A stretch of 64,000 nucleotides of DNA, from assembly GCA_028688325.1 (NCBI GenBank), contig JAQTYI010000001.1, positions 31,088 through 95,087 on the forward strand, read 5' to 3'. Origin of the DNA: Candidatus Portnoybacteria bacterium. Its GTDB lineage: Bacteria; Patescibacteriota; Minisyncoccia; Portnoybacterales; GWB1-42-6. Positions within the stretch are counted from its first letter, which is position 1. The number at the start of each line of letters is the position of its first letter. The notes below the pieces were generated by a model. That model saw only the letters and a list, made by a program, of their open reading frames with translations, was not told the origin of the DNA and searched no databases. Positions 17,895-49,973 of this stretch are shown piece by piece. Made by a program: the position numbers and the translations under genes.

Positions 17895-17906
17895 CTTGTT
17901 TTTTCT

Positions 17907-18136
17907 CCGCGCATACGAAAAACTTTAAGACAAAATCGAGATGAGCGAGGCGTTTAAAATCGCGTGCTGTGGCGGGGCCCCAAGCGTCAGCTTGGGGCGT
18001 TGTGCATAGCGATTTTAGATGAGCGAATCCGATTTTGTTAAAGTTTTATCGCCGCACGGGAACTCTTTTGCTACTTTTCTGGTTACAGAAAAGTAGATTA
18101 AATTATATTAACCTGGATTCCCGCTTTCGCGGGAAT
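17907..18136. repeat. About 200-bp structured intergenic repeat family, copy 2
   Basis: See copy 1. This copy adds a terminal hairpin attcccgc-tttc-gcgggaat. Confidence 0.75.
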
Positions 18137-18150
18137 GACAGCCGGAGATA

Positions 18151-22433: not shown

Positions 22434-22437
22434 ATTT

Positions 22438-22900
22438 TAACTACTAAATACTAATTTTTACGAATATACTAAAAATTATTTAATATTCAAAACTCTTTTA
22501 AATTTAACTCCAGTTTTTGAGAAGTGAGCAATAATTCCCAGCATCAAACCCTTGGCTTTTAAATAAGAATACAGCTGGCTAATATCTTTTTTAGAAAAAT
22601 AATCCCTGACTTTAATTTCTAAAACTATTTTGTCGTCGATCAAAAAATCGAAAAAATACTTTCCCACTATGCTCCCGCGATAGTTAATTTTTACCGGCAA
22701 TTGCTCAATAAAAACGATCCTTTCTCGTTCCAAATCTTTAGCTACTGCTCTTTGATAAAAAACTTCTTTGTGGTTGCTGCCAATATTGCTCCATACATTA
22801 AACAAAATACCCACAATCTTATAAGATAACTCCGGATATACCAAATCATCCCTTATCTTCACCATTTTGTATATTAGTACAAATTAGTATTTAGTAGTTA
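22438..22900. mobile_element. 463-bp cassette bounded by perfect 20-bp inverted repeats (TAACTACTAAATACTAATTT) that carries the GxxExxY gene
   Basis: The left TIR at 22438-22457 is the reverse complement of 22881-22900. The cassette fills the gap exactly between the fba start codon (22433) and the stop codon of the upstream 422-aa gene (22898-22900). Confidence 0.65.
22476..22865 (-). CDS. GxxExxY-family protein (PD-(D/E)XK-like)
   Basis: YPELSYKIVGILFNVW..G.....EVFYQRAVAKDLE..KINYRG matches the GxxExxY family pattern; 129 aa. Confidence 0.7.
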   Translation of the reverse strand: MVKIRDDLVYPELSYKIVGILFNVWSNIGSNHKEVFYQRAVAKDLERERIVFIEQLPVKINYRGSIVGKYFFDFLIDDKIVLEIKVRDYFSKKDISQLYSYLKAKGLMLGIIAHFSKTGVKFKRVLNIK

Positions 22901-24166
22901 CAACTCGATGAATCCTTTCTCAATATTGTTCAAAACTAATTCCCTCAACTTTTCCTCCCCCATAAATTCCATGAATATCTTATTCCACAGCGATTCCTGC
23001 TGGTGATAAAGATATTTTCCAAGACCCCCGTGGGTCAAGGCCACGATATTGTCTATCAGATCAAAGCTCACGATTTCTTCGCCTTTTTTACCGGCCAGGA
23101 ATATATCGCCGGCAAAATCATCGGCGCCACGCCAAAATTCCATATCGGCTTGCGGATATTTTTCCGCCAAAAGATCCATTTCTTTTTCCGCCCGCAGCCA
23201 ATGTAAATTCTCCGTGTTCACATGGGGCTCAAAAAGCCGCGGATCCTGAGGATCCGCCTTGGCCAAATATCTTTGGATAACTCTCCAAGATATTTTTCCG
23301 TCCTGCAAAGCGGCGCCCGATGCTTTGCCGGAAAGTAAATCCACAATGTTTTTTCCAAAGTCCGGCCGCTTTGCGTATCGCCTGAACAACTCGCAATAAA
23401 AATCGATTTCGTGAATATAGTGCAAGACCAAACTGAATGTTTCCGCGATCCGGCCGGGAGCGTAGACATGGACGCCGCCGTTCCCGTTAGAGGCCTCGGG
23501 GATGATAAAAACAAGGCCAAGCTCTTTCAAGTGGCTGATGTGATGAAGCTTTTTGCCGACAAATTTAGCGCCGATCTTCGCCCATTTTTCAGAAAGCACG
23601 CGCACTTTTATTTCCCTTTCTTCAAAATTATCCGCGGTTAAGTCATTATACGGCCTGAAAAATGTTTCGTTCAGCCAACGCTCGTTTTCCACAAAGCGCA
23701 AGGCGGCAAAAACTTCATACAAATTCTCCTTGGCCAGCATTTCTTGCACGCCGGCGTACCCTAAATCGCCCAAAATATTTTTGGGCGGATTCAAGAACAA
23801 AAAATCGCGCAGTTTTTCTTCTTGCAAAAAAAATCCGTTTTTTACGCCAGAAATTTCCTTTATCTTGCCTATCATGACTCCGCAGCCGTCCTGCTTGCTC
23901 AGATCCGGCTCGCCCAAAAATTCATAGAATGCCTTGTCGGCTTCTTTGGTTTTTTCAAAAAGCTTCGCCTGCACCAATTGAGCATCGGCTTTTTCTTCCG
24001 CTATGCCGAGTTCCTTTAATTTTTGCTTGACTATAGCTTCGTTCTCCTTGCAAATTTTTTCGGCCACGCCGGTTGTGCCGGTCAATTTTTCCATTTTGGC
24101 GAAAATCTCGGCCAAAACGCTTTCGGGCGAACGCAATAATGCGGCGATTTTTTGGACTGGTGTCAT
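22898..24166 (-). CDS. Hypothetical protein (422 aa), no family recognised
   Basis: Long uninterrupted ORF between the mobile cassette and the sugar-kinase gene. Confidence 0.5.
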   Translation of the reverse strand: MTPVQKIAALLRSPESVLAEIFAKMEKLTGTTGVAEKICKENEAIVKQKLKELGIAEEKADAQLVQAKLFEKTKEADKAFYEFLGEPDLSKQDGCGVMIGKIKEISGVKNGFFLQEEKLRDFLFLNPPKNILGDLGYAGVQEMLAKENLYEVFAALRFVENERWLNETFFRPYNDLTADNFEEREIKVRVLSEKWAKIGAKFVGKKLHHISHLKELGLVFIIPEASNGNGGVHVYAPGRIAETFSLVLHYIHEIDFYCELFRRYAKRPDFGKNIVDLLSGKASGAALQDGKISWRVIQRYLAKADPQDPRLFEPHVNTENLHWLRAEKEMDLLAEKYPQADMEFWRGADDFAGDIFLAGKKGEEIVSFDLIDNIVALTHGGLGKYLYHQQESLWNKIFMEFMGEEKLRELVLNNIEKGFIEL

Positions 24167-25169: not shown

Positions 25170-25212
25170 AAATTATGATCTGTCATTCTGGCGAAAGCCA
25201 GAATCCAGGTTT

Positions 25213-25470
25213 TTATAATTCGTAATACAAATCGCGCCATTGAGGATTTATTTTTTCAATCAATTCTATTTTCCATTTTCTTTTCCAATTTTTCAGTTGT
25301 TTTTCTCTATTTAAAGCGCTGTATGCATCATTGATATAATCATAATAAACAAGCGAATGTAACTTGTATTTCTTAGTAAAGCCCATCGACCGCATTACTT
25401 TTATGTTCCCAAATCCTTTTTTTCAAATTAGAAGTAACTCTTATATATAAAGTACCGTTTCACCCGCCAG
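25213..25470 (-). pseudogene. Degraded GIY-YIG nuclease-family gene (multiple frameshifts)
   Basis: The track ORF (MGFTKKYKLHSLVYYDY..REKQLKNWKRKWKIELI) matches the C-terminal half of small GIY-YIG proteins. Upstream, YYVYILAGG (the GIY-YIG N-terminus) and LKKRIWEHKSN lie in two other frames separated by stops. Confidence 0.5.
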
Positions 25471-25535
25471 CAAGAATATAAACATAATAATTCTTCAAAT
25501 TCATTCCTGGATGCCGGGTCAAGCCCGGCATGATA

Positions 25536-27803: not shown

Positions 27804-28538
27804 TTAAATTATTTTTTTAAAATCTTCCAGCGCCTTAGCGGGATCGTCGTCGGCAAAAATCGCCGAGCCAACAACTAAAAAACCAGCGCCGGCTTCAGCC
27901 AGCTTTAAAATATTTTCTTTATTCACTCCTCCATCCACTCCTATTTTAACATCGGGATACTTTTGCCGCAATAAAATAATTTTGGGGATAACGCTCTCTT
28001 CGAATTTTTGCCCGCCCTGCCCCGGCTTGACGCTCATCAGAAGAACCATATCAATCTCGCTGATGAAATTATTCAGCACGGTTATCGGCGTTTCCAGGTT
28101 CAGCGCCACGCCGAATTCCTTGTTGTTCCTGTGCGCTTCTTGCGCAAGATTGGAAATCGGAAAACCCGCGCCAACCTGCGTTTTATACGGTAAAATTTCG
28201 TGATTGTGTATTTTCTCTATCGCCTCCCAATGCAAAATGACTCGTCCGACCTTGCTGTTTAGCCACTCATTCAAAACCCGATGGGGATTATCCACCATCA
28301 AGTGCGCCTCCAAAAAAAGATTTGTTTCTAATTTTTCCAGATCATTTACTGAGGGTTTACCCTGAGCGAGTCCCGAGCCGTGGTCGAGGAACGAGTCGAG
28401 GGGCCAGGTTTTATCGGACACAAAAATACCGTCCATAACATCAAGCTGAACGGTCTTCGCGCGCCTCTCAACGAGTTTGATTTTTTCCTTTAACTCGTTA
28501 AAATCTTTAGCAATGATGGCGGGAATGATTTCTGACAT
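27804..28538 (-). CDS. rpe: Ribulose-phosphate 3-epimerase (with an extra segment that matches a palindromic repeat)
   Basis: IIPAIIAKDF, DVMDGIFV, HLMV and VDGGVN..GAGFLVVGSAIF motifs. It is about 20 aa longer than typical Rpe. The extra segment coincides with the repeat ccctgagcgagtcccgagccgtggtcgaggaacgagtcgagggg at about 28355-28400. Confidence 0.8.
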   Translation of the reverse strand: MSEIIPAIIAKDFNELKEKIKLVERRAKTVQLDVMDGIFVSDKTWPLDSFLDHGSGLAQGKPSVNDLEKLETNLFLEAHLMVDNPHRVLNEWLNSKVGRVILHWEAIEKIHNHEILPYKTQVGAGFPISNLAQEAHRNNKEFGVALNLETPITVLNNFISEIDMVLLMSVKPGQGGQKFEESVIPKIILLRQKYPDVKIGVDGGVNKENILKLAEAGAGFLVVGSAIFADDDPAKALEDFKKII

Positions 28539-28544: not shown

Positions 28545-28640
28545 CTAATGTCTAATGAAATACCCAATGCCAAATGTCCAAATGTCCCGCAGAGCGGGAC
28601 TGAATTAGAAATTAGTAATTAGAAATTTGACATTTTTATT
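28545..28640. repeat. AT-rich ATGACA/TGTCAT-rich palindromic intergenic element
   Basis: Member of a family also present at 30965-31135, 31860-31990, 32805-32890, 36535-36715 and 62600-62695. All are tandem aaatgacNaa units arranged as long imperfect palindromes at gene boundaries. Confidence 0.5.
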
Positions 28641-29084: not shown

Positions 29085-29172
29085 GTCATCCTGAGCACAT
29101 TCGCTCCGCTCAGTATAAACTCCGCGAAGGATCTATAATAGATTCTTCGGGCTACGCCCTCAGAATGACAAA
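29085..29172. repeat. Palindromic element of the gtcatcctga...cagaatgac family (intergenic copy)
   Basis: cgtcatcctgagcac..gaaggatctataatagattcttcggg..cctcagaatgacaa. An in-frame homologue lies at 43253-43356 inside the GT39 gene. Confidence 0.6.
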
Positions 29173-30340: not shown

Positions 30341-30380
30341 CTCTCCCCTCTTTTCGTAAAGAGGGGTTGGGGGGGAGATT
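30341..30380. repeat. Poly-G/poly-C palindromic element (intergenic copy of the family inserted in miaB/gatB/gatA/miaA)
   Basis: ctctcccctcttttcgtaaagaggggttgggggggagatt. Confidence 0.5.
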
Positions 30381-30557
30381 TAGTTTCTTATTTTTTTACA
30401 AATAAAAAAGGAGAACGGTTTTCCGCTCTCCTCTCGCGTTATTCAAAAAAGTAAATAAAATTCACGCAGTCATAAAATTCACGCAGTCAGAGTGCGTGAG
30501 ATTACTCTATTATAGGTCCTTCGGTCGCTGCTGCTCCCTCAGGATGACAGAATACCG

Positions 30558-30964: not shown

Positions 30965-31135
30965 AATATAAAATTAATTAACTATTAAAAGATATACGAA
31001 AAACGATAAAATGTCAAATGACGAATGACTAATGACAAATCAATTTCAAAGCCCAAAATCCAAATTTTGACATTGGACATTAGGATTTTATTTGTCATTT
31101 GTCATTGGAAATTAGTCATTTAAGACAAGTTCCTT
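30965..31135. repeat. AT-rich ATGACA/TGTCAT palindromic intergenic element
   Basis: aaatgtcaaatgacgaatgactaatgacaaatc ... gacattggacattagg ... tttgtcatttgtcattgg. Confidence 0.5.
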
Positions 31136-31162
31136 CGCTTCGTTCAGGATGACAAATTGGCC

Positions 31163-31912
31163 CTACTTCCCGCTCGCCCCGTTCCACCCCTTGGCCGCCA
31201 GCGCGTTTTCAGCCGCTTTTTGCTGGGCATCCTGCTTGGAAACCCCCTCGCCCTCAGCTACCAGCTCATCATTCAAATATACCCCTATCTTAAAATTCTT
31301 TGCGTGATCCGGCCCCCACTCTTTCAAGACCTCGTAGCTCGGCGTGATGCCCGCCCGCTCCTGCGCCTCTTCCTGGAACATGCTTTTGGCGTCGCGATAC
31401 GCTCCTTCTTTCAGAATTTCCGGCAGATGAGCCAAGATATTTTTTTCTATGAACTCGCCCGCCACCTCGATTCCCTGGTCCAGGAATATCGCGCCGATAA
31501 GCGCTTCCATCGTGTTGGCTAAAATATACTGGCGCGCCCGGCCGATATCTTTGGATTCGCCGCGGCTTAACATCAAAAAATCATTAAGACCGATGGCTTC
31601 GGCGATTTCCGCTAATTTTTTAGCGTTGACCAAAGCGGCGCGCCAATTGGTCAGCTCGCCTTCGGGATTGGGATAGGTCGCGTAGAGATGCTTGGTGACG
31701 ACCAATTCCAGCACCGCGTCGCCCAAAAATTCCAACCGCTCGTTATGGGGCAACTGGAAATCAGGATTTTCATTCAGAAAAGACCGGTGCACGAACGCCT
31801 GCTGCAGCAGATCCTTATTTTTAAAAGATACGCCTATCTTATTCTCGAGTTTAAATAGCTCCTTCATTACAAAATCCAAATGACAAAATCCAAATGACCA
31901 ATCAATGACCAA
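31163..31912 (-). CDS. rnc: Ribonuclease III
   Basis: ERLEFLGDAVLELVV RNase III signature and a C-terminal dsRBD. Confidence 0.9.
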   Translation of the reverse strand: MVIDWSFGFCHLDFVMKELFKLENKIGVSFKNKDLLQQAFVHRSFLNENPDFQLPHNERLEFLGDAVLELVVTKHLYATYPNPEGELTNWRAALVNAKKLAEIAEAIGLNDFLMLSRGESKDIGRARQYILANTMEALIGAIFLDQGIEVAGEFIEKNILAHLPEILKEGAYRDAKSMFQEEAQERAGITPSYEVLKEWGPDHAKNFKIGVYLNDELVAEGEGVSKQDAQQKAAENALAAKGWNGASGK

Positions 31913-31990
31913 GCCCTAAATCCCAAAAATTCATTTTGACATTAGGATTTGGGATTTTATTTGTCATTGGGACTTTGACATTTGACATTA
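31860..31990. repeat. AT-rich ATGACA/TGTCAT palindromic intergenic element
   Basis: aaatccaaatgacaaaatccaaatgacc..cctaaatcccaaa..tttgggatttt..gtcattggg..gacatttgacatt. Confidence 0.5.
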
Positions 31991-31994
31991 AAAA

Positions 31995-32432: not shown

Positions 32433-32447
32433 ATTTTCCTTATGTCA

Positions 32448-32535
32448 TTCCGAGTATAGCGAGGAATCTCCCGCGAATGCGGGGCCGCCCATTCGGGCGA
32501 GATCCCTCGTCGCTACGCTCCTCGGGATGACAATC
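32448..32535. repeat. About 90-bp imperfect palindrome of the gtcattcc...gggatgac family
   Basis: gtcattccgagtatagcgaggaatctcccgcgaatgcgggg..gagatccctcgtcgctacgctcctcgggatgacaa. Confidence 0.55.
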
Positions 32536-32798: not shown

Positions 32799-32891
32799 AT
32801 CTTTAAAATTTCTAAATCCTAATTTCTAATTTCTAAACCAATCCTCGCTCCGCGAGGACTTCATTAGACATTAGATATTAGAAATTTGTCA

Positions 32892-34970
32892 TTATTTAGT
32901 GAACGGTATCAGCCCCATATTGTCCAAATAGCTTCTGGCGCTTTTGTTGTTCGGCTCAATTTCCAAAACTTTTTGCCAGGCGCGGCGCGCTCCGGAAAAA
33001 TCCCCCTCCTGATAATAAATCCTGCCCAGCGGCAGATAAGCATCAATATATCCGTCGTCCAATTCTATCGCCTTTTTGAAATAGGCCTTGCTTCGTTCGG
33101 TATCGTTTTTTGCCTCGCAGAGCATCCCGTTCGCCAGCCAAACCTGCTTGGCGCCGGGATTTTGTTCCAGCGCCCGGTCAAATGCCTGAATGGCCAAATC
33201 GTTAAGGCCCGCTGTTTGGAAAAACGAACCCAAACGCACTGAATCAAAAAAATCATTGTCGACCAAGTATTTGTAAATATACCGGCCTAAATTTTCTTGA
33301 TTCAAGGCGTATTTGAGGATCAAGGGTTTATTGGCTTGATTGTCCCGGGCCCAGATAACGATTGCCGAGTCGAGATAAACCATCTTCCAGCCGCTCCTTT
33401 GCACCATCCGGCGAATAAATGATTGCCCCCAGGGAGTCGCGTCGGTATGGGCGAAAAAAACAAAATTTATCCCATAGGTATCATCTGCGTATTTTTGCCA
33501 GGCCGCATCGCCTGTCTGCATCGGAATATATACCGATTGAAAAAAATCCGCCGGATACGCTTCGGGCCGGCCGTCAATAAAAACTTTGTAATCGGGCCAG
33601 GCCTTCCAAATAAGAAAACCGCCGATATCAAAATTATTGAACATGGGGCCGGAAACCCTATTCTGTTTTAAAAAATCAATCGCCGCATCCGCTCCCGCCG
33701 GGATGCCCAAGCCGAAGCGCTCGCTTTCCATTGATTTTAAGTAAAAACGGTTGGAAACAACCGAGTAAATACTCCCAATTAAAATAACAAAAATAAGGGC
33801 AATGGTCAAGAGATGCGCGACGCCTCTCAGCCGGATTTTCTCCCATCTGGCAAAATATCTGGCATATTGCTCGCGAGCACAAGCAAAATTAGCCGATAAA
33901 ACCGGGATAGCCGCCAGCCCCAACAACGGAAAATTGCGTATAGCCGACCAAGAAGTTATAACGAAAAATACCGATAAAAACAAATAAAACGGCCTCATCT
34001 TGCGCCAATTGAACAAAAAAGAGACAGCCAGCGCCGCCAGCGTTATTTTAAAAAAAATGATCGCGGGATTGAACATCAGCTTCTCCAAAAAGAACGGCGA
34101 CTGATTTTCCGCGATGGAATAGCCGTAGTTGTTAAAAATATAAAAGGGATAAAGTGCGCCGCGCCAAACATTGGGGTTTGCCAGCGCCGCCGCGCCGGCG
34201 AGCAACCCAAGCAAAATAACCTGCGCCATATAACGGTCCAATTTTTTCTGCCGCGCCAAAAGATACACGGCGCGGCGGCGCATCCAGAGCCGATCCAGAA
34301 AAAAGAAAAATATCAGCGCAAGGCCGTAGATAAAAGAAATATGCAAATTGACCCAAAGCAGCTCCAGCGGGATAAGTAGCCAAAAAGACCGGGAGATTTT
34401 TTCTTTATTTTTGTCCAGGATAAAAAGAAACAGAGCGAAAAGCAAAAATCCGAAGGTCTCGGGCCTGATATCCGTGCGCTCCAAAATCAATCCCGCGCCG
34501 AGAATTGCCGCCAAAATGGAAAAAATTAAATATTTTTTTCGCCAAGCCAGCTTCCAGACCAGCGCAAACGCCGCCAAAATGATTAAAGCGTTAAAAATTA
34601 TGAGGCCCTTAATGCCAATGGCCAAAGACAGCAAATAATAAATGACTTCGCTCAGCCAGTGATGATTGACGAATGGAAAGTTGGGATTGGTATAAGAAAA
34701 AAAGTTGGTATCCGGGATCTGCTTAGTATGCCAAATTAATTCGCCCAATTTCAAATGCCGGCCCAAATCCTGATTCACGGCCGAAGCGCTGTGAATTAAA
34801 AAAACCGCCAATGTCATCAAGACCAGCTCGACTAATATCCACTTCGAAACGACCGGCCAGCCGAGATCAAACTGGCGGCGATCGACGCTTTTTTTATTTT
34901 TTGGCGCCTCGACCGGCTGCGAAAATCTTTGATCGTCGGGGATCAATTGAAACATATTTTTATTATACAT
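32892..34970 (-). CDS. Large polytopic membrane protein with C-terminal TPR repeats (putative glycosyltransferase/oligosaccharyl-transferase-like)
   Basis: More than 10 hydrophobic helices, then TPR-like repeats (AIQAFDRALEQNP, AYFKKAIELDDGYIDAY, ARRAWQKVLEIEPNN). Confidence 0.55.
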   Translation of the reverse strand: MYNKNMFQLIPDDQRFSQPVEAPKNKKSVDRRQFDLGWPVVSKWILVELVLMTLAVFLIHSASAVNQDLGRHLKLGELIWHTKQIPDTNFFSYTNPNFPFVNHHWLSEVIYYLLSLAIGIKGLIIFNALIILAAFALVWKLAWRKKYLIFSILAAILGAGLILERTDIRPETFGFLLFALFLFILDKNKEKISRSFWLLIPLELLWVNLHISFIYGLALIFFFFLDRLWMRRRAVYLLARQKKLDRYMAQVILLGLLAGAAALANPNVWRGALYPFYIFNNYGYSIAENQSPFFLEKLMFNPAIIFFKITLAALAVSFLFNWRKMRPFYLFLSVFFVITSWSAIRNFPLLGLAAIPVLSANFACAREQYARYFARWEKIRLRGVAHLLTIALIFVILIGSIYSVVSNRFYLKSMESERFGLGIPAGADAAIDFLKQNRVSGPMFNNFDIGGFLIWKAWPDYKVFIDGRPEAYPADFFQSVYIPMQTGDAAWQKYADDTYGINFVFFAHTDATPWGQSFIRRMVQRSGWKMVYLDSAIVIWARDNQANKPLILKYALNQENLGRYIYKYLVDNDFFDSVRLGSFFQTAGLNDLAIQAFDRALEQNPGAKQVWLANGMLCEAKNDTERSKAYFKKAIELDDGYIDAYLPLGRIYYQEGDFSGARRAWQKVLEIEPNNKSARSYLDNMGLIPFTK

Positions 34971-34996: not shown

Positions 34997-35728
34997 TTAG
35001 CCATCAAAAGATTCTTTTTTACAAGGCACGAAACTCCGCCGATGTATGGAGCAGGCGCCGTATTGTCCGATGGCCGCCATATGCGCTCGCGTGCCATAGC
35101 CCTTATGAGAATCAAAGCCGTATTGCGGAAATTTGGCATGATATTTTAACATCAGCCGGTCGCGCGTGACTTTGGCGATAATGGAGGCCGCGGCGCAAGA
35201 CCAGATCTTTTCGTCTCCGCGAGTTACGGCTTTTTGGCTGACAGACAGGTCTTCCAATAAAAAATTGCCGTCCAGCAGGAGATAATCCGGCTCCCCTTTC
35301 AAGTCAACCAGCGCCCGCTTCATCGCCAGCTTTGTCGCTTCCAGAATATTTATCCGGTCGATTATTTTTTCCGAAACGATGCCGATGCCATATTTTATAT
35401 CGGGGCTGGCGGCCAAGATTTCAAACCACCTTTCTCGCTGATTGGCGGAAAGCTTTTTAGAATCGCGGATTTGAAGCCGCTTTTCTGTCCTTCTCGCGCC
35501 ACGCCCCTCGGTAGCCATGGGCGAAGGAGGGAAAGCGGGACTCCAGGGCCTGGATCCCGGGTCAAGCCCGGGATGACAAATCAGGACCGCCGCAGCAACC
35601 ACCGGTCCGGCCAGCGGCCCGCGGCCGACCTCGTCCAGGCCGACCACAAAATCATAGCCCTGCCGCCAAAGCTTTTGCTCATAACTGAAATCCGGATTTA
35701 TGGATTTTTGCTCTGCCAGTATTATCAT
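34997..35728 (-). CDS. rnhB: Ribonuclease HII carrying an in-frame insert of about 30 aa encoded by a palindromic repeat
   Basis: GLDEVGRGPLAGPVVAAAV...DSKKLS are RNase HII motifs. The extra CHPGLDPGSRPWSPAFPPSPMATEGRGARR maps onto the repeat ccagggcctggatcccgggtcaagcccgggatgacaa at 35530-35577. Confidence 0.85.
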   Translation of the reverse strand: MIILAEQKSINPDFSYEQKLWRQGYDFVVGLDEVGRGPLAGPVVAAAVLICHPGLDPGSRPWSPAFPPSPMATEGRGARRTEKRLQIRDSKKLSANQRERWFEILAASPDIKYGIGIVSEKIIDRINILEATKLAMKRALVDLKGEPDYLLLDGNFLLEDLSVSQKAVTRGDEKIWSCAAASIIAKVTRDRLMLKYHAKFPQYGFDSHKGYGTRAHMAAIGQYGACSIHRRSFVPCKKESFDG

Positions 35729-35930: not shown

Positions 35931-36533
35931 GCGGAAAATAAATTAGGCCTCAATTGGTCGGCCGCGGAAAAAGCCCTGGCCGAAGGAACTTTTTCTGGCT
36001 ACAAAATCGGCATACTGGAAACCGAAAAGATATTCGAGGAGTTGCTCAAGAATAAGCAGATCCCCGGCGGCTCAACCGAACGCAAAATAAAATACATTCA
36101 GCGCTTTTTAAGCTTGCCGGATAAGCTGGATTACAGCCAGCATGTTTATGAGCGCATCCTGCACGAGCCGCATTTTGAGATATCGCGCGAAGAAACAAAG
36201 CACATAATTTCCGGCTACTGGCAGGCCATGCTGGACATTGAAGAAGCGGTCGCCTCTTTGAGCATGCGGGAAAAAATTTCACTAAGAGCCCGATATATTT
36301 CAGCTATGGCGGTAAAAAATGCGCGCAATGTTGTTTTGGCGATTTTGGGCGTCTCCGCTGTTATCTGGTTCCTGGCCGAAACGAATATCGGCAAAAAGAT
36401 CGCCTCTGTAATTATTGCCGCCAATCATTTTTTTATTTTTAAATTTCTGTTCTGGACAATGGTCATATTGGCAATACTGCTGGTCATCGGCGGCGTACTG
36501 TATTTTTTGACAAGAAGGAAGAAGCGCTTTTAG
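35928..36533 (+). CDS. Hypothetical membrane protein (C-terminal TM helices)
   Basis: ORF whose ATG immediately follows the MITE TIR. Confidence 0.5.
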   Translation: MAENKLGLNWSAAEKALAEGTFSGYKIGILETEKIFEELLKNKQIPGGSTERKIKYIQRFLSLPDKLDYSQHVYERILHEPHFEISREETKHIISGYWQAMLDIEEAVASLSMREKISLRARYISAMAVKNARNVVLAILGVSAVIWFLAETNIGKKIASVIIAANHFFIFKFLFWTMVILAILLVIGGVLYFLTRRKKRF

Positions 36534-36534
36534 A

Positions 36535-36715
36535 ATGCCAAATGACGAATGCCTAATGACTAATCAATACCAGCTTCGCTGGTATCCCGCAGTTGCGGGA
36601 TGATTGCCGAGGCAATCAAAGCTCAAAATCCAAATTTGACATTGAGGCATTGGGATTTTATTTGTCATTAGTCATTGGAAATTTGTCATTTCATAAAATT
36701 TTACCAAATCACATC
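36535..36715. repeat. AT-rich ATGACA/TGTCAT palindromic intergenic element with three central mini-hairpins
   Basis: ccaaatgacgaatgcctaatgactaatcaa..taccagcttcgctggta..tcccgcagttgcggga..gattgccgaggcaatc..gacattgaggcattggg..tttgtcattagtcattgg. Confidence 0.5.
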
Positions 36716-40182: not shown

Positions 40183-40360
40183 TTCTACTGCGCACGGTCG
40201 GGATAAAAGAAATCCCATGTTTTCCGATCCATGGGCTCCAGATCGACGCAACCGCAGCTTCGGCAGTCCACGATCATCCTTACGACATTTAATTCTTTAC
40301 CGTCCGGACTTGCCTGCGGCCATTCCTGAAACATCGCTGAACATTGCCCTTTGTCAGCGA

Positions 40361-40468
40361 CTAATGTACCGCACACTGCGGACAGCACCAAACAACATCT
40401 TCCGGCAATTCCACTGAGCCGCCGCAAGCCAAATAGCCCAAACCTATCCTGGTTTTTACACCGCTCAT
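40361..40468 (-). CDS. Small Cys-rich ORF (35 aa, CxxC) with a strong Shine-Dalgarno site; may be a frameshifted, longer zinc-ribbon/rubredoxin-like gene
   Basis: aaaggaggagaat-ATG; MSGVKTRIGLGYLACGGSVELPEDVVWCCPQCAVH. The overlapping 80-aa track ORF (40185-40427) in another frame carries CRSCGC. Confidence 0.3.
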   Translation of the reverse strand: MSGVKTRIGLGYLACGGSVELPEDVVWCCPQCAVH

Positions 40469-42310: not shown

Positions 42311-42587
42311 CAAGCCGCCCATAGCGAAAATGGGGGTTGTTCTGCCGCGCATACGAAAAACTTTAAGACAAAATCGAGATGAGCGAGGCGTTTAAAATCG
42401 CGTGCTGTGGCGGGGCCCCAAGCGTCAGCTTGGGGCGTTGTGCATAGCGATTTTAGATGAGCGAATCCGATTTTGTTAAAGTTTTATCGCCGCGCGGGAA
42501 CTCTTTTGCTACTTTTCTGGTTACAGAAAAGTAGATTAAATTATATTAACCTGGATTCCCGCCCCGCATTTGATGCGGGGCGGGAAT
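42311..42587. repeat. About 200-bp structured intergenic repeat family, copy 3 (extended)
   Basis: Nearly identical to copy 2. The terminal hairpin is lengthened to attcccgccccgca-tttga-tgcggggcgggaat, with pairing preserved. Confidence 0.75.
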
Positions 42588-42600
42588 AACAATATATACG

Positions 42601-44103
42601 ATGAATCTCCTTAAAAAATCCTGGCCGTTCATATTCCTGACAGCTTTATCGCTCATAATCCACTTCTCCTTTTTAAGCTACCCCAGCCAGGTGGTTTTTG
42701 ACGAGGTGCATTTTGGCAAGTTCGCGGCCGCCTATTCCACGGGCCAGTATTATTTTGACATCCATCCGCCGCTTGGCAAACTGATGATAGCGGGTTTTAC
42801 AAAATTGGCCGGCATTGATCCGGTTTTTGATTTTAACAACATCGGCGAGAATATGCCCGCCGGCACTCTTTTTGCCATGAGATTTCTGCCCGCGCTTTTT
42901 GGCGCACTTTTTGTTTTGGCCTTTAGCTGGTTGGCGTGGCTCGCAACTCGCGACAAAAAAATCGCCCTACTGGCCGGTTTTTTGATATTGCTGGATAACG
43001 CTTTTTTAGTGCAATCAAAATTCATTCTGGTGGATATTTTTATGCTGTTTTTTGAAGTTTTAACGCTCTGTTTTTTCTTCCTGTGGCAAAGGCAAAAAAG
43101 CTTTGGCGCAAAATGGTTTTCATATTTATTCTTGACCGCAATATTTTTCGGACTGACAATTTCCATTAAATGGACAGGGTTGGCGACTATCGGCATCATT
43201 GGCGTTATTTTGTTTATAAAAATATTTAGCAAAAAAATATCTATCTACTTAAGTCATCCTGAACCGCCAGTGGGCGGTGAAGGATCTTTAATAGATTCTT
43301 CGGCCTCGACGGAGTTTATGCTGAGTGAAACGAATGTGCTCGGCCTCAGAATGACAAAATTAAACTTGCTCAAAGAATGGCTGGTTGGTTTTTCTGCTAT
43401 CATACTTATCGGTTTCCTCGTATACCTCATCCCCTTCTATATCCACTTCGACCTTCTCCCCAACTCCGGCCCGGGCGATGCTTTTATGAGCCCGCAATTC
43501 CGGCAGGAACTGCAATACGGCCGCGCCAATGTTTATCAGCCGCTGCCCTTTTGGCAAAAATTTACAGAGCTCAATAAAACCATGTATACGGCCAGTACCA
43601 ACCTGACCACCGAGCATCCTTTTGGCAGCAAGTGGTATAGTTGGCCGCTGAATAGCAAGCCCGTCTATTATTGGAATAGGGATGAAATTGCGAGCCGCCC
43701 CGACTGGCAAGCCAAGATATTTTTTTCCGGCAACCCTGCAATCTGGCTCATAGCGGCCATAGGCATAATTTTCGTTCTAATAAAACTAGCAACCAAAAAA
43801 GGTCGGCGCGATTTCGGTCCGTTTTTTTTTATTTTATTGATAGCTTATTTTGCCAATCTCCTGCCGTTCATTTTTATTAAACGGGTGGCGTTTCTATACC
43901 ACTATCTGCCCCCGGCGATTTATGCCAATTTTATTTTGACTCTGCTCCTGGCTAAGCTCTGGCCGAAAGAAAAAAACTTTTTTACCGCGGCTATAATTTT
44001 TGTTATTCTCGGATTCATCCTGCTCTCGCCGCTTTCTTACGGCTGGCCGATGCCGCCAAAACTCGATTGGGCGGAAACAAACTTCATCGGTCTTTTTCAT
44101 TAA
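42601..44103 (+). CDS. GT39/PMT-family (ArnT-like) membrane glycosyltransferase with an in-frame insert of about 35 aa encoded by a palindromic repeat
   Basis: The FDEVHFGKFAAAY PMT motif and many TM helices. The extra SHPEPPVGGEGSLIDSSASTEFMLSETNVLGLRMTKL maps to the gtcatcctga...cagaatgacaaa repeat at 43253-43356. Confidence 0.7.
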   Translation: MNLLKKSWPFIFLTALSLIIHFSFLSYPSQVVFDEVHFGKFAAAYSTGQYYFDIHPPLGKLMIAGFTKLAGIDPVFDFNNIGENMPAGTLFAMRFLPALFGALFVLAFSWLAWLATRDKKIALLAGFLILLDNAFLVQSKFILVDIFMLFFEVLTLCFFFLWQRQKSFGAKWFSYLFLTAIFFGLTISIKWTGLATIGIIGVILFIKIFSKKISIYLSHPEPPVGGEGSLIDSSASTEFMLSETNVLGLRMTKLNLLKEWLVGFSAIILIGFLVYLIPFYIHFDLLPNSGPGDAFMSPQFRQELQYGRANVYQPLPFWQKFTELNKTMYTASTNLTTEHPFGSKWYSWPLNSKPVYYWNRDEIASRPDWQAKIFFSGNPAIWLIAAIGIIFVLIKLATKKGRRDFGPFFFILLIAYFANLLPFIFIKRVAFLYHYLPPAIYANFILTLLLAKLWPKEKNFFTAAIIFVILGFILLSPLSYGWPMPPKLDWAETNFIGLFH

Positions 44104-44696: not shown

Positions 44697-46022
44697 ATGA
44701 ACTATTTTACCATTACCTATGGCTGTCAAATGAATAGGTCCGACAGCGAGAAAATCACGACCCGCCTCCGTAAAATGGGTCACCAACCGGCCAAAAACGC
44801 GGCTCTGGCCGAATTAATAGTGGTTAATCTTTGTTCGGTCAGAGAAAGCGCCGTCCATCGCGCGCTGGACCAGATACATAAACTATCTGATGGTCGAAAA
44901 AAAATAATCGCGGCCGGATGCATTCTGCCGCAAGACAGAAAAAAGCTGGCTGCCAAAAATATCGCTATCTGGCACCCGGATGATTATTTTTCGCAAGTCC
45001 CCCTGCGGGAAAGCGAATTCAGCGTGTTCGTGCCGATAATGACCGGCTGCAACAACTTCTGTTCTTATTGCGCCGTGCCCTTCACGCGGGGCAGAGAAAA
45101 ATCACGCCCCGCCAAAGAAATAATCGCCGAAATAAAAAAACTGCTCAAAAACGGAGCTAAAGAGATAATTTTGCTTGGGCAGAATGTGAATTCTTATAAA
45201 GATACCGCCGAAACATTTAATCCCCCCACCCCCCTTTTGCGTAAGGGGGGCGAAAAACCCGTATCTGCCTCCCTTGTAAAAAGGGGGGCGGGGGGATTAA
45301 AAAATACCTCGATCGACTTTCCGGCCCTATTAATAATAATCAACGCCCTCTCCGGCAACTTCCGCCTTTCCTTCATCACTTCCCATCCCAAAGATATGTC
45401 GGATAAGCTGATTGAAACGATGGCCAAGTGTAAAAAAATTATTCCTTATTTGCATTTGCCCGTTCAAAGCGGCGACGACAAGATCTTGCGGGCTATGAAC
45501 AGACATTATAGTGTCGCGCATTATAAAAATTTGATAAAAAAGATCCACTCCTCCTTTGCCCGCTGGCGGGCTTCGGAGGACAAGCCGCCCTTTTCTCCCA
45601 TAGCCATCTCCACCGACATAATTGTTGGCTTTCCCGGCGAAACTGCTAAACAATTTCAAAACACGCTAAAACTGATAAAGAATGTTAATTTTGATATGAT
45701 ATATTTTGCCCGGTATTCTCCGCGATCCGGCACCGCGGCCGCCAAATTAAAAGACAATGTTTCGCCGAAAGAAAAAAGACGCCGGGCGCAAGTGATAAAT
45801 TCCCTGCTAAAAAAACAGGCACTGGAGTTGAATAAAAAATATATCGGGCAAGAAGTCGAGATACTGGTGGAAAAAGTCGACGCGAACTGGGCCCGGGGAA
45901 AAACTTCAACTAACAAGGAAGTGATGTTGCCGCGAAAAAAATTGAAGATAGGACAATTTACAACGGTAAAAATAACCGAAGCCGCCGCTTGGCATTTGAA
46001 GGGATTAGAAAAGCCGCGCTAA
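44697..46022 (+). CDS. miaB: MiaB/RimO-family radical-SAM methylthiotransferase (likely tRNA i6A37 methylthiotransferase) with an in-frame insert of about 25 aa
   Basis: N-terminal MTTase domain (YGCQMN), radical-SAM CNNFCSYC, TRAM domain. The insert TFNPPTPLLRKGGEKPVSASLVKRGAGGLK is encoded by the poly-G/C palindrome at 45218-45300. Confidence 0.85.
   Translation: MNYFTITYGCQMNRSDSEKITTRLRKMGHQPAKNAALAELIVVNLCSVRESAVHRALDQIHKLSDGRKKIIAAGCILPQDRKKLAAKNIAIWHPDDYFSQVPLRESEFSVFVPIMTGCNNFCSYCAVPFTRGREKSRPAKEIIAEIKKLLKNGAKEIILLGQNVNSYKDTAETFNPPTPLLRKGGEKPVSASLVKRGAGGLKNTSIDFPALLIIINALSGNFRLSFITSHPKDMSDKLIETMAKCKKIIPYLHLPVQSGDDKILRAMNRHYSVAHYKNLIKKIHSSFARWRASEDKPPFSPIAISTDIIVGFPGETAKQFQNTLKLIKNVNFDMIYFARYSPRSGTAAAKLKDNVSPKEKRRRAQVINSLLKKQALELNKKYIGQEVEILVEKVDANWARGKTSTNKEVMLPRKKLKIGQFTTVKITEAAAWHLKGLEKPR
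45218..45300. repeat. Poly-G/poly-C palindromic element inserted in frame in miaB
   Basis: aatccccccaccccccttttgcgtaaggggggcgaaaaacccgtatctgcctcccttgtaaaaaggggggcggggggatt. Confidence 0.7.
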
Positions 46023-46204: not shown

Positions 46205-47224
46205 ATGTCAAAGCCAACTTATCCCCAAAAACCGATAATCGTCGTGGTCGGCCCCACGGCCTCGGGAAAATCCGACTTAGCAGTTAAGCTCGCTAAAAAA
46301 TTCAACGGCGAGGTTATTTCGGCCGATTCGCGCCAGGTTTACAAAGGCATGGATATCGGCACGGGAAAGGTGCCTCTCTCAAGTCCCCCCCTTGCGCAAA
46401 GGGGGGCCAGGGGGGTTAAACCTGCTGGCTACTACGGCGGCATTGCACATTATTTAATCGATGTGGCCTCGCCAAGCCGCCGATTTACCGCCGGGCAATA
46501 CAAAAAACTGGGGCAAGCAGCAATAAAAAAGATACAAGACAAAAACAAGATTCCCATCGTTTGCGGCGGCACCGGATTTTATATCCGCATGCTTGTGGAC
46601 GATCTGCAAGTTCCGGCCGTCAAGCCGGACTTAAAACTGCGCGCCAAATTGGAGAAAAAGACAACACAAGAACTATTCGCCGAGCTTAAAAAACTGGATC
46701 CGCGCCGCGCCGCGGAAATCGACCGCGCCAATCCCCGTCGGCTCGTTAGGGCGCTGGAGATAATTTATCTAACTGGCAAACCCGTGCCGCCGCCCCCCCC
46801 CTCTGTCATTCCGGGCTTGACCCGGAATCCAGAACCTGGATCCCGCATCAAGTGCGGGATGACAAATAATAATGTATTGTTCCTCGGCATCCGCCTCCCC
46901 CGACCCAAACTCGCCAAACGCATCAAAGCGCGCCTGGCTAAACGCCTTAAACAAGGAATGCTCGCCGAAGTCAAAAAACTCCGCGCGCAGGGCGTTTCCT
47001 GGAAACGACTGGACAGCTTCGGCCTGGAGTACCGCTGGCTGGCGAAATTTTTGCAAAACAAAATCTCCTATGAGGAGATGGTTGAGCGCCTGCAAAAAGA
47101 TATAGAACATTATGCCAAACGGCAGATGACCTGGTTTGGCCGCGATGAACGGATTCGCTGGATAAAAAATTCTGCGCAAGCGGAAAAATTTATGGCCAAA
47201 TTCTTGAAAAAATCAGCTCTCTAG
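46205..47224 (+). CDS. miaA: tRNA dimethylallyltransferase with two in-frame repeat-derived inserts
   Basis: P-loop GPTASGKS, and SADSRQVYKGMDIGTGK. Insert 1 at about 46384-46420 is LSSPPLAQRGARGVKPA (poly-G/C family). Insert 2 at about 46790-46866 is PPPPPSVIPGLTRNPEPGSRIKCGMTNN (gtcattcc...gggatgac family). Confidence 0.85.
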   Translation: MSKPTYPQKPIIVVVGPTASGKSDLAVKLAKKFNGEVISADSRQVYKGMDIGTGKVPLSSPPLAQRGARGVKPAGYYGGIAHYLIDVASPSRRFTAGQYKKLGQAAIKKIQDKNKIPIVCGGTGFYIRMLVDDLQVPAVKPDLKLRAKLEKKTTQELFAELKKLDPRRAAEIDRANPRRLVRALEIIYLTGKPVPPPPPSVIPGLTRNPEPGSRIKCGMTNNNVLFLGIRLPRPKLAKRIKARLAKRLKQGMLAEVKKLRAQGVSWKRLDSFGLEYRWLAKFLQNKISYEEMVERLQKDIEHYAKRQMTWFGRDERIRWIKNSAQAEKFMAKFLKKSAL

Positions 47225-48772
47225 TTTTTTCTTCAACATCCCAACCACCACCTGAGGATTGGCCTTGCCCTTCGTGGCGGCCATGACTTTGCCGACAAGA
47301 AACATCAGCGAGTTTTGCTTGCCTTTTTTAAAGTCCGCCACCGGGCCGGGGTTGGCGCTTAAAACTTCTTCGATTGCCAGATTCAGCTCTTCCTCATCGC
47401 TCACCTGGCCCAAGTCCTTTTCGGCAATGACATGCGAGGGATCCGCTCCCGTGGCGAACATTTCCGCCAGCACCGTTTGCGCGCCGGAAGATGAAACCAC
47501 GCCTTGCGCTGTCAGTTTGATGAACTCGGCGAATTTGGCCGGTGTGATTTTTACGGCGGAAAAATCATTGCCCGACTGATAAACCAGCCGCTGGAGCTCC
47601 GTAATCAAATAGTTCACCGCCAGTTTTGCCGATTTGGCATAGTCAATTTTCGGCTCGGCCATTTTAGCCAAAGCCGCCAATTCGCTGGCCGTTTTTTCAA
47701 AATAATTTCCCAGATCGAAATTAACGACTAAAACATCGATATCTCCGGCCGACAAACCGTATTCTTTGGCGAATCTCTCCCTTTTTTGCGCCGGCAATTC
47801 CGGAAGCTCTTTTTTCAATTCCTCGCTCAAGATCACCAACCCCTTTAGCGGCGGCAGATCCGGCTCGGGAAAATAGCGGTAATCATGCGCCTCTTCTTTC
47901 GCGCGCTGACTGAATGTCTCGCCTGTTGCATCATCCCAACCGCGCGTTTCCTGAATTATCTTTTCGCCCGCTTCCAACGCCTCGGTTTGCCTTTTTATCT
48001 CATAGTCAATCGCCCGCTCAACTACTCGAAAAGAGTTTAGATTTTTTATCTCTACCTTCGTCCCTAATTTCTTTAACCCTCCTGCTTCCCCCTTTACAAG
48101 GGGGGCAGATACGGGTTTATCTCCCCCCTTACGCAAAAGGGGGGTTGGGGGGTTAAAGTCCACGGGCCGTATACTAATATTGACTTCGCACCTCATCTGC
48201 CCTCGCTCCATATCCGCATCGGAAATTCCCAAATATCTAAAAATTAATTGCAACTCCTGGCAAAATTTGCGTGCCTGAGCGCCGGATTTTATATCGGGCT
48301 CTGTTACCAATTCCATCAACGGCACGCCGGCGCGGTTTAAATCCACAAGCGAATAGTCAGCTCCCTTGGGATGCGTTAATTTGCCGGTGTCCTCCTCAAG
48401 ATGTATCCGGGTTATCCTGACGCGGGCTTTTTCATCGTTTTCTCCGATATCCAAATACCCGCCTTCAATTAGCGGCTGGTCGTATTGTGAGATCTGGTAA
48501 CCCTTAGGCAAATCGGGGTAAAAGTAGTTCTTGCGGTCGAACTTGGATGTGTCGCCGATCTGGCCTCCCAGGGCCAATCCCGCCTTTAGAACCATATGCA
48601 CCGCTTCCTCGTTGATGACAGGCAAGGTTCCGGGCTGGCCGGAGCAGACGGGGCAGATATCAACATTGGGCTCGGTTTCAAGGCCCAGCCCGTTGGGACA
48701 AGAACAAAACATCTTGCTCTTGGTTTTCAGCTCGGCGTGGATTTCCAGGCCTATAGTCGGTTCGTATTTCAT
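47213..48772 (-). CDS. gatB: Asp-tRNA(Asn)/Glu-tRNA(Gln) amidotransferase subunit B with an in-frame insert of about 25 aa
   Basis: Starts MKYEPTIGLEIHAEL and has GatB/YqeY domains. The insert DFNPPTPLLRKGGDKPVSAPLVKGEAGGLK is encoded by the element at 48073-48156. The track start (MNITEFLLPGM) lies inside MITE 1b. Confidence 0.9.
   Translation of the reverse strand: MKYEPTIGLEIHAELKTKSKMFCSCPNGLGLETEPNVDICPVCSGQPGTLPVINEEAVHMVLKAGLALGGQIGDTSKFDRKNYFYPDLPKGYQISQYDQPLIEGGYLDIGENDEKARVRITRIHLEEDTGKLTHPKGADYSLVDLNRAGVPLMELVTEPDIKSGAQARKFCQELQLIFRYLGISDADMERGQMRCEVNISIRPVDFNPPTPLLRKGGDKPVSAPLVKGEAGGLKKLGTKVEIKNLNSFRVVERAIDYEIKRQTEALEAGEKIIQETRGWDDATGETFSQRAKEEAHDYRYFPEPDLPPLKGLVILSEELKKELPELPAQKRERFAKEYGLSAGDIDVLVVNFDLGNYFEKTASELAALAKMAEPKIDYAKSAKLAVNYLITELQRLVYQSGNDFSAVKITPAKFAEFIKLTAQGVVSSSGAQTVLAEMFATGADPSHVIAEKDLGQVSDEEELNLAIEEVLSANPGPVADFKKGKQNSLMFLVGKVMAATKGKANPQVVVGMLKKKLES
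48073..48156. repeat. Poly-G/poly-C palindromic element inserted in frame in gatB
   Basis: The reverse complement is nearly identical to the miaB copy (ttaaccccccaaccccccttttgcgtaaggggggagataaacccgtatctgccccccttgtaaagggggaagcaggagggttaa). Confidence 0.7.
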
Positions 48773-48903
48773 ACCAGGTAGTAGAAATTCGGTTATATTC
48801 ATAAATCCATACGGATTTTTAAATTGCCGAATTCTATAGTTTTATCAAATTTTGCCAATTAGTGATAGTTAACTAAACTGCCGAATTTTCACTACCTGGC
48901 ATA
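48770..48903. mobile_element. MITE copy 1b with 20-bp TIRs, flush against the gatB start codon
   Basis: cataCCAGGTAGTAGAAATT ... AATTTTCACTACCTGGcat; the interior is about 80% identical to copy 1a; ATA flanks. Confidence 0.65.
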
Positions 48904-49780: not shown

Positions 49781-49973
49781 CCCCACCCATAGCGAAAAAA
49801 TAATCAGAAAATCGAGGCGAGTTGAGCGTCTAAATTTGCGTGCTGTGGTGGGGCCCCGACCGTCAGGTCGGGGCGTTGCGGATAGCAAATTTAGCGAGAC
49901 GAGCCAGATTTTCTTTATTTTTTACGCTCGGGCGCAGGTCTTTTGGCTACTTTTCTGCCTGCCAGAAAAGTAG
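49781..49973. repeat. About 200-bp structured intergenic repeat family, copy 4
   Basis: The central hairpin is ccccgacc-gtca-ggtcgggg here versus ccccaagc-gtca-gcttgggg in copies 1-3: compensatory changes with pairing preserved. The distal hairpin is ctacttttctg-cctgc-cagaaaagtag. Confidence 0.75.

Follow-up and report, generated by a model that had tools for sequence, protein, structure and literature searches.

A stretch of 64,000 nucleotides from a Candidatus Portnoybacteria bacterium (assembly GCA_028688325.1, contig JAQTYI010000001.1, positions 31,088 to 95,087; hereafter the window) raises the question of what a palindromic repeat of the form gtcatYc...gRatgac is doing both between genes and inside the reading frames of housekeeping genes. 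The original prediction, made from the sequence of the window, had proposed a repeat family inserted in frame in rnhB, miaA, a GT39 glycosyltransferase gene (PMT) and probably rpe. Within the window we found no fewer than seven in-frame inserts, spread over six housekeeping genes, and a further insert in the RNase P RNA. We consider it probable that the gtcatYc...gRatgac repeats are CGTC/TGTC-tagged REP hairpins, the same as the Neisseria Transformation Sequence (NTS) and its degenerate form, the Ssn-related motif (SRM), and that they are selfish and recently mobile elements with the small nuclease Ssn as their likely partner.

The basic unit of the repeat is a hairpin of 28-30 nt that reads TGTCAT, an arm of 6 nt, a loop of 4-5 nt, the arm's reverse complement and then ATCCAGG. 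Adding the AT of tag and tail to the 6-nt arms gives a Watson-Crick stem of 8 bp, preceded by the 5' tag TGTC and followed by the tail CCAG(G). At least 13 units, four doublets among them, were found in the window, arranged as solo units, as tail-to-tail doublets with the tags outward, or in one case as a symmetric hairpin, and extra hairpins are nested inside the loops of some units. The TGTCAT...ATGACA termini, which the original prediction had read as common to all copies, are the outer ends of tail-to-tail doublets. From the survey of Di Nocera, De Gregorio and Rocco 2013 (PMC3733652), CGTC-tagged REPs have the tag CGTC or TGTC (CCTC is allowed), a stem of 8-9 bp with complementary A/T in positions 1-2, a loop of 4 nt (family 1, GAAA) or 5 nt (families 2-4) and the tail CCA; they reach high copy number, frequently form dimers with unlike stems, and as intragenic dimers encode 20-30 residues. 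CGTC-1 is there equated with dRS3 and with the Rickettsia palindromic element (RPE) RPE-6, and CGTC-4 with RPE-4 (PMC3733652). The NTS, CGTCATTCCCGCGMAVGCGGGAATCYRG, contains dRS3, and SRM is its degenerate form (Chenal et al. 2025, PMC11893778). When the published SRM pattern, HGTCWYN(0-2)YYVSBRHN(0-5)WNVSBRGN(0-2)RNCYNB, was searched in the window, it matched 4 times against 0.17 +/- 0.38 in 100 dinucleotide shuffles, an enrichment of about 24-fold, and many evident copies with long loops or of a sister family failed the strict pattern. Since tag, stem, loop and tail match the published description, the SRM pattern is enriched, and the unit at 18113 equals the NTS bar one base, we assigned the units to this family.

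To describe the unit we aligned 14 distinct units, which come from 21 copies extracted from the window and three related loci (L003, L005 and L008). The tag TGTC (TATC twice) stood 5' of the stem in these units, AT/AT opened the stem in 14 of 14, the loops were GAAA (4 nt) or CTTGA, CTTGT and TTTGT (5 nt), and most units ended in the CCAG(G) tail. The stem sequences differ among copies yet stay complementary (ATTCCCGC, ATTCTGGC, ATGCCGGG, ATCCCGGG, ATCCCGCA, ATGCCGAA and others). The results showed 100% Watson-Crick pairing (112 of 112 cells), partly by construction because units had been pre-selected at no more than one mismatch; five of the eight pairs were changed on both sides, 27 cells were compensatory, and neither one-sided changes nor G-T intermediates occurred. 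Even allowing for this selection of units, stems entirely free of G-T pairs point to a palindrome at the DNA level rather than to an RNA structure under selection. Folded as single-stranded DNA, units and doublets reached z scores of -2.9 to -9.4 against shuffles, the doublets forming three-arm structures closed by TGTCAT/ATGACA. The hairpins matched no family in Rfam, searched with the whole window at the gathering threshold and with one region at E<=1. Related DNA totalling 613 kb held 30 units with perfect stems (about 27 convincing) against 0-2 per shuffle, and about 8 of the 27 good units lie in frame inside long open reading frames (ORFs). The window has a G+C content of about 47% and a negative GC skew throughout. 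TGTCAT...CCAG lies on the minus strand in five of the six solo units (5106-5136, 18113-18140, 25507-25535, 35549-35578 and 42551-42591) and on the plus strand at 25181-25208; such a strand bias may matter for a single-strand nuclease, and the copies are too few to judge.

One insert lies in RnhB. The RNase HII structure of T. maritima (3O3G) aligns to residues 19-50 and 83-236 of RnhB and leaves 51-82 over, and in the AlphaFold model residues ~51-84 have pLDDT values of 46-61 and no secondary structure, lying between a confident strand and a confident helix. Across 35 RnhB orthologues, GPVxAAAV and RDSKKLS lie anywhere from a few to about 60 residues apart. The RnhB proteins of 203 aa (P0015 and P0022) have the few-residue spacing and no insert, and other orthologues carry other elements at the same site: FVIPAKAGIQVSGSRVKPGMT in P0028 and similar sequences in P0008, P0037 and P0054, SSPPQLRRGLRGG in some, and VIARKS...TPRND in others. 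The SRM unit is missing, as a 42-nt gap, from L001, which is syntenic with window positions 24600-45900 at 90% DNA identity. The proposed module of about 30 aa agrees with the ~31 extra residues found, of which the recognisable hairpin covers only ~14; the remaining residues are a decayed second unit or another element.

The same was found in the other protein genes. In the miaA doublet one unit fits the SRM pattern and the whole folds into three arms (z -5.4); 8 of 27 MiaA orthologues lack it, and others carry variants such as SVILAKAGIQARIPEPGSRVKPGMT. The second miaA insert is missing in P0126-P0129, P0132 and others and is extra relative to structure 2QGN. Residue ~220 of PMT is occupied by a sister composite in the window, by a C/G-rich hairpin in L001, by an SRM doublet in L215 and by nothing in L005. 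The composite in the miaB-like gene is partly missing in L001, and the gatB and miaB-like copies yield a near-identical peptide, FNPPTPLLRKGG.KPVSA.LVK, in the same frame from genes on opposite strands. The PMT, GatB and MiaB-like inserts, of ~30 aa each, are missing in L005 and L008. The C6/G6 composites of miaB-like and gatB are a different family with the same behaviour as the SRM units. In all cases the host ORFs run uninterrupted through the inserts. Alignments with orthologues and with solved structures, together with the low-confidence loop of the RnhB model, show these segments to be loop insertions that keep the frame and are specific to the lineage; there are two in miaA and one each in rnhB, PMT, rpe, gatB and the miaB-like gene. 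That they might be conserved native loops had been named as what would overturn the prediction, and orthologues or structures lacking the segment were found for RnhB, MiaA, PMT, GatB, MiaB-like and Rpe, together with ten RNase P relatives in which P19 is absent or short. As separate observations, the C6/G6 family (TTAATCCCCCC...GGGGGGATTAA) has copies at 45216-45304, 48069-48157, 46386-46420, 30346-30380 and 61347-61385, in frame in the miaB-like gene, gatB, miaA and probably gatA, and related CCTCCCCTC..GAGGGGAGG hairpins occur in rnhB and PMT and beside RNase P (L001, L131).

The elements in rpe and in the RNase P RNA make up a third variant. Rpe contains 14 residues (PLDSFLDHGSGLAQ) that 1RPX and 3QC3 lack, exactly at the element, which is 18 nt shorter in L001. 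Against Rfam RF00010, the RNase P RNA of the window has an insertion of ~40 nt at P19; this extension occurs only in the window and in L131, and P19 is missing or a short hairpin in 10 of 12 RNase P RNAs (346-464 nt). The core of the RNase P insert, CCTGAGCGAGCGCAGCGAGTCGAAGG, is identical at 25 of 26 positions to in-frame trmD inserts of L001 and L003, and a related copy lies in thrS of L003; the trmD and thrS genes of the window have no such inserts. The third-variant pattern matched 5 times against 0.6 by chance. On the match between the RNase P core and the trmD inserts and on the related thrS copy, the third variant is a genuine dispersed element. The prediction that one variant joins rpe and RNase P is thus borne out as to dispersal, and the TGTCAT/ATGACA ends claimed for it are lacking: the rpe element has no such ends, and the RNase P element has TTGTCCT...AGGACAA. 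We also considered a target origin of the TGTC tag, an idea taken from the native GACAAAAT beside the RNase P insert, and rejected it on the empty site of L001, which has no TGTC. The RNase P RNA of L131 is 464 nt long and carries a 24-nt insert, cttgcaaggggtttactccgagcg, in the P3 loop (L131 2739-2762), and a ~1.4-kb coding sequence resembling an ABC transporter is inserted beside RNase P at L131 896-2320.

To follow the turnover of the units, we compared the window with L001 and with L131, its closest relative (94% identical). Among 14 window-specific insertions of at least 20 nt relative to L001, 9 are repeat elements of the SRM or other families: a 42-nt SRM piece in rnhB, a 42-nt unit at 42544-42585, two pieces of the ssnA cassette described below, elements of 86 nt and 69 nt near 30400, a C6/G6 piece in the miaB-like gene, the inner hairpin of the PMT composite and one piece of a long-hairpin family. 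L001 in turn has elements of its own, namely a 78-nt composite in trmD, other hairpins in rnhB and PMT, and a nested AT-rich palindrome of 97 nt; L131 differs from the window by the same kind of repeats. Since a syntenic genome of 90% identity differs mainly by the presence, absence or replacement of hairpins, the turnover of the units is recent, with gain, loss and replacement among genomes 90-94% identical. The unit at 42544-42585 forms a clean filled and empty pair with L001, comprising exactly TGTTAT...ATCCAGG (42 nt). Target-site duplications, which the original prediction had suggested looking for, were found neither at this site nor at the ends of the ssnA cassette in five loci, where the left flank is AT-rich and often TTATT or ATTAT. 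Genic indels relative to L001 keep the frame (rnhB 42 vs 9+42 nt, trmD 36+42, rpe 9+9), whereas intergenic indels are multiples of 3 in 11 of 26 cases, a comparison that the original prediction had suggested. This frame bias is what survivorship under selection is expected to give and is no evidence of a special mechanism. The presence of different families at the same protein sites could reflect permissive loops, elements that target elements, or conversion-like replacement. A 187-nt segment upstream of thrS (40237-40423), in which we recognised no repeat, is also missing in L001.

The units are associated with a nuclease gene. SsnA is a 94-aa single-domain GIY-YIG nuclease which binds and cuts NTS/SRM hairpins as single-stranded DNA only (PMC11893778). 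In the window, two SRM units bracket a decayed ssnA with one TGA, one frameshift and a change of YIG to YIR, and the repaired frame on the minus strand encodes 96 aa. The repaired product matched the Pfam GIY-YIG domain over its full length (E=4.4e-10), and the spacing of its Tyr/Tyr/Glu residues, Y9/Y20/E67, equals Y6/Y17/E64 of N. meningitidis SsnA. Searches of NCBIfam and of PDB sequences with the reconstructed Ssn returned no match, and its assignment to cd10448 remains a candidate. Ssn homologues number in the thousands, with 94-105 aa and 64-74% identity, in Patescibacteria and other phyla; the window holds no second ssnA copy. Intact cassettes with the same two flanking SRMs as the window were found in L005, L008, L211 and L213, with TGTCATGCCGGGCTTGACCCGGCATCCAGG directly 5' of the ATG and CTGGATTCTGGCTTTCGCCAGAATGACA 3' of the stop codon. 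The cassette occupies two unlinked loci, one between thrS and PMT (L005, L008, L213) and one downstream of tkt (L211 and the pseudogene of the window), and the flanking units differ in a further intact cassette in L215. A private jump of the cassette into the tkt-pfkB spacer of the window was considered and then softened, because L211 has an intact ssnA there, which makes these two loci of the clade. From the sequence evidence, the single-stranded DNA nuclease Ssn is the probable partner enzyme of the units. Another small nuclease cassette with repeat flanks was seen at 22435-22903, where a 129-aa PD-(D/E)XK nuclease gene (Pfam PDDEXK_3, 22476-22865) lies between inverted repeats of 39 nt (22435-22473 and 22865-22903) that are 90% complementary.

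The coordinates of the elements are collected in Table 1. All copies listed by the original prediction were present at, or within 1-3 nt of, the positions it gave, and its overall reading of palindromic repeats inserted in frame held, the tests it had set for its own refutation having failed to refute it. The copies marked as new in the table, together with half copies near 30518-30547 and 31125-31154, go beyond it, as do the family identity, the ssnA pseudogene, the second miaA site and the gatB and miaB-like inserts.

Table 1. Repeat elements of the window, with strand and setting (z, fold score against shuffles; new, copy beyond the original prediction).
Feature	Position	Strand	Setting and remarks
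Solo unit, stem ATTCTGAA	5106-5136	-	Intergenic; new
Third-variant element TTGTCCTGAGCGAGCGCAGCGAGTCGAAGGACAA	10886-10919	+	P19 position of RNase P RNA (10512-10946)
Solo unit TGTCATTCCCGCGAAAGCGGGAATCCAG	18113-18140	-	Intergenic; SRM pattern match; equals the Neisseria NTS consensus bar its first base; new
SRM-ssnA-SRM cassette	25181-25535	-	Units 25181-25208 and 25507-25535 (both new) bracket decayed ssnA at 25213-25504
Third-variant element CCTGAGCGAG...CGAGTCGAGGGG, encoding PLDSFLDHGSGLAQ	28361-28402	+	In frame in rpe (ORF 27804-28538, minus)
Sister composite (GTCATCCTGAG...)	29085-29170	+	Intergenic; different element in its place in L001
Sister composite (GTCATCCTGAG...), TGTCATTCCGAG...CTCGGGATGACA	32443-32532	+	Intergenic; z -5.0; L001 copy holds nested 97-nt AT-rich palindrome; new
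Whole extra RnhB segment, residues 51-82	35483-35578	-	SRM unit plus decayed partner or other element (...GGGAAAGCGGGACTCCAGG)
SRM / CGTC-REP unit, TGTCATCCCGGGCTTGACCCGGGATCCAGG on minus strand	35549-35578	-	In frame in rnhB (ORF 34997-35728, minus); SRM pattern match
Solo unit with hairpin nested in loop	42551-42591	-	Intergenic, between thrS and PMT; new
Sister composite (GTCATCCTGAG...), GTCATCCTGA...TCAGAATGACA	43253-43356	+	In frame in PMT/GT39 gene (ORF 42601-44103)
C6/G6 palindromic composite	45216-45304	+	In frame in miaB-like radical-SAM gene (ORF 44697-46022); z -6.4
Second miaA insert, ~16 aa LSSPPLAQRGARGVKP	46376-46423	+	C6/G6 palindrome family, repeat copy 46386-46420
Tail-to-tail SRM doublet encoding SVIPGLTRNPEPGSRIKCGMT	46804-46864	+	In frame in miaA (ORF 46205-47224)
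Inverted copy of C6/G6 composite	48069-48157	-	In frame in gatB (ORF 47213-48802, minus); 85% complementary
Doublet, stems ATGCCGAA and ATCCTGAA	54528-54591	+	Intergenic; new
SRM doublet, extra hairpins nested in both loops	56588-56699	+	Intergenic; z -3.6
Symmetric hairpin TGTCATCCCGGC-TCAAG-GCCGGGATGACA	60597-60625		Intergenic; z -9.4

To see how far the units extend, we scanned genomes, one per species, with the exact pattern, and at least 120 stretches matched. The matches listed include Alpha-, Beta-, Gamma- and Deltaproteobacteria, Bacteroidota, Planctomycetota, Nitrospirales, Chloroflexi, Zixibacteria, many Patescibacteria, a Nanoarchaeota metagenome-assembled genome (MAG) and a Rickettsia endosymbiont. 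Long stop-free stretches held 54 of 144 genome-scan matches, which is a hint only, many lying at ORF edges or in GC-rich genomes. In the Rickettsia endosymbiont of Polydrusus tereticollis (L058 591-724 and 1641-1770), a TGTCATTCCCGC hairpin lies in nested composites of 134 nt, in which an outer doublet surrounds an inner one whose stems are CCTGAA; an ORF of 1136 aa contains one doublet. This hairpin links the elements of the candidate phyla radiation (CPR) directly to RPE-like elements.

We propose the following course for the spread of the units. The hairpin would extrude in single-stranded DNA, Ssn would nick the extruded strand upstream of the tag, and repair or replication would then copy units to new sites or over older inserts. 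Genic copies would persist only if their length keeps the frame and the 10-35 extra residues sit in a tolerant surface loop, for which the dispensable helix P19 would be the equivalent in RNase P RNA; lodged inserts would simply be translated or transcribed. Several findings weigh against this proposal. The window has no intact ssnA, none of the best 120 Ssn homologues lies on the 788,852-bp contig of this genome, and Ssn is on record as a nuclease of single-stranded DNA only, with no strand-transfer or copying activity (PMC11893778). One clean filled and empty site was recovered, and it has no target duplication; the complete pairing of the stems owes something to the way the units were chosen. 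The sister and third variants fail the strict SRM pattern; the third variant has no tag and its fold does not exceed that of shuffled sequence (z about -0.8), so that its membership of the family would rest on behaviour and partial similarity of sequence. In other Portnoybacteria-like genomes, 80 loci around RNase P are almost free of units, and the family is therefore patchy.

These points leave room for an account in which the units are real and spread by ectopic recombination or gene conversion, by template switching or by an unidentified transposase, and Ssn uses them as landmarks, for example in restricting incoming single-stranded DNA as in Neisseria. We regard it as possible, though we incline away from it. 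Elements replace one another at exactly the same sites of rnhB, miaA and PMT, as conversion would give; perfect stems without intermediates fit arm-to-arm copying; no dedicated transposase has been found for CGTC REPs (PMC3733652); and both the purely nucleolytic record of Ssn and a dead ssnA beside units that look recent suit it. Set against this are the published ties between nuclease and repeat: ssnA is typically flanked by repeats, SRMs flank 71% of ssnA homologues, and Ssn is encoded in 81% of the genomes that have over 200 SRMs (PMC11893778). The SRM-ssnA-SRM cassette with identical ends at two unlinked loci, and the lack of any transposase domain (RAYT, IS200/IS605 and Y1 included) in ~50 window ORFs scanned with Pfam, also speak against it. 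That the host keeps the repeats for its own use, as marks for transformation or recombination, as RNA hairpins which stabilise or terminate transcripts, or as useful variable loops, seems to us improbable. NTS/Ssn does modulate transformation in N. meningitidis (PMC11893778), CGTC REPs lie mostly downstream of genes, and a role as RNA elements is presumed for them (PMC3733652), and several intergenic copies of the window lie between convergent or same-direction genes. However, the inserts are dispensable and missing in close orthologues, the sequence at a given site is replaced rather than conserved, the RnhB insert is predicted to be disordered, direct reading found no T runs after the intergenic hairpins on the transcribed strand, and the missing G-T pairs speak against selection acting on the RNA. 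As the source of the segments, native loops peculiar to the lineage or assembly artefacts are hardly credible: the genome is a MAG and variable loops do exist at these protein positions, but units of the same nucleotide sequence turn up between genes, within several unrelated genes and in a gene for an RNA, orthologues without the segments exist, and inserts of the same kind are found in independent ENA, JGI, Logan and NCBI assemblies.

Selfish, recently mobile hairpins with Ssn as partner, which the nuclease would mobilise, thus remain the reading we prefer. A bolder version, which we think doubtful, is that in Portnoybacteria the Ssn cassette and the solo hairpins are actively mobile, that Ssn is the missing mobilising enzyme of the CGTC REPs and of the small Rickettsia RPEs, and that nicking at lodged hairpins provokes ectopic repair and so makes permissive loops self-renewing. 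RnhB after strand 2, the two MiaA sites, PMT at ~220 and P19 and P3 of RNase P would then be self-renewing hypervariable loops of otherwise streamlined genomes.

Further repeats of other kinds were observed in the window. A fifth family is an imperfect intergenic palindrome of ~190 nt (8793-9019, 17898-18124, 42336-42562, 49783-49935 and 62123-62330) with 53 predicted pairs, 18 of them compensatory among 4 copies, and with ends CTACTTTTCTG..CAGAAAAGTAG; two copies are 98% identical, and four of the five lie directly against the start codon of a gene on the minus strand (amidohydrolase, glycosyltransferase, folD and gatA). It has no Rfam match and could be a large MITE (a transposable element of the miniature inverted-repeat type) or a shared leader. 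AT-rich palindromic intergenic repeats at 28597-28637, 31007-31123, 31869-31992, 32804-32896 and 36531-36693 are built from the words aatgacaaat and atttgtcatt, resembling the ATGACAAAT ends of SRM doublets; the palindrome of 97 nt that L001 holds nested in another element is a copy of this kind. Inverted pairs of TTCTACTACCTGGTAT, ~100 nt apart, lie at three intergenic sites by gene starts (16008-16042/16122-16151, 35796-35828/35902-35936 and 48770-48798/48874-48904) and could represent a promoter or operator module, or else mark the ends of some small element.

These findings bring the ultra-small genomes of the CPR, in which every kilobase is thought to be under pressure, into the range of a known class of selfish hairpins that decorate essential proteins; in the window the inserts are tolerated. 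In CPR protein sets, peptides like VIPAKAGIQ, GSRVKPGMT and FNPPTPLLRKGG derive from the repeats and are not functional motifs; they add to protein length and can lead alignments, domain calls and phylogenies astray. Genome pairs of 90-94% identity whose main differences are these units, and cassettes with identical ends at two loci, offer natural material for tests of mobilisation by Ssn.

Among known systems, REP/REPIN sequences carry a GTAG tag, and their RAYT is an HUH tyrosine transposase resembling IS200/IS605. The Portnoybacteria elements resemble them in being short tagged hairpins with inverted doublets and an enzyme gene between its own repeats, and differ in the TGTC tag, the GIY-YIG enzyme and the absence of a RAYT domain from the ~50 ORFs scanned. 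Doublets share the inverted ends of a classical MITE but have no target-site duplication, as seen at the one site of 42544-42585 against L001. Vioque reportedly described short tandemly repeated repetitive (STRR) sequences inside cyanobacterial RNase P RNA in 1997; these too are genome-wide short repeats in a dispensable helix of that RNA, but they are tandem heptamers in another helix, whereas a palindromic unit lies at P19 here. RPEs are said, after Ogata et al. in 2000, to sit within the reading frames of housekeeping proteins and within RNA genes, where loops tolerate them. The elements described here are likewise palindromic repeats in frame in protein genes, absent from orthologues and with a predicted translated product, in another phylum and lifestyle; the classic RPE-1 is longer (~100-150 bp) and not obviously built from the SRM unit. 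With NTS/SRM-SsnA they share the hairpin, the NTS-ssnA-NTS architecture, a single-domain nuclease of ~96 aa and the catalytic spacing, whereas ssnA of the window is a pseudogene, and Chenal 2025 mentions neither intragenic or in-frame copies nor Patescibacteria. In the literature searched we found no report of the CGTC/SRM family in Patescibacteria, of in-frame copies in Patescibacteria core genes at such density, of RNase P P19/P3 insertions, or of an explicit link between in-frame RPE-like inserts and Ssn or GIY-YIG. The CGTC REPs were surveyed in Proteobacteria, Chlorobi, Bacteroidetes, Spirochaetes and Thermotogae (PMC3733652), phyla that do not include Patescibacteria. CGTC-1 and CGTC-2 agree with our units in the tag, the 8-bp stem opening with AT, the loop of 4 or 5 nt, the CCA tail and the occurrence as solo units and as dimers with different stems, to which the Portnoybacteria elements add dimers with tags outward and tails inward, nested and composite forms and insertion into an RNA gene. 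The kind is already known, as CGTC REPs (2013), RPEs (2000) and SRM/Ssn (2025), and the Portnoybacteria elements appear to be its members in Patescibacteria.

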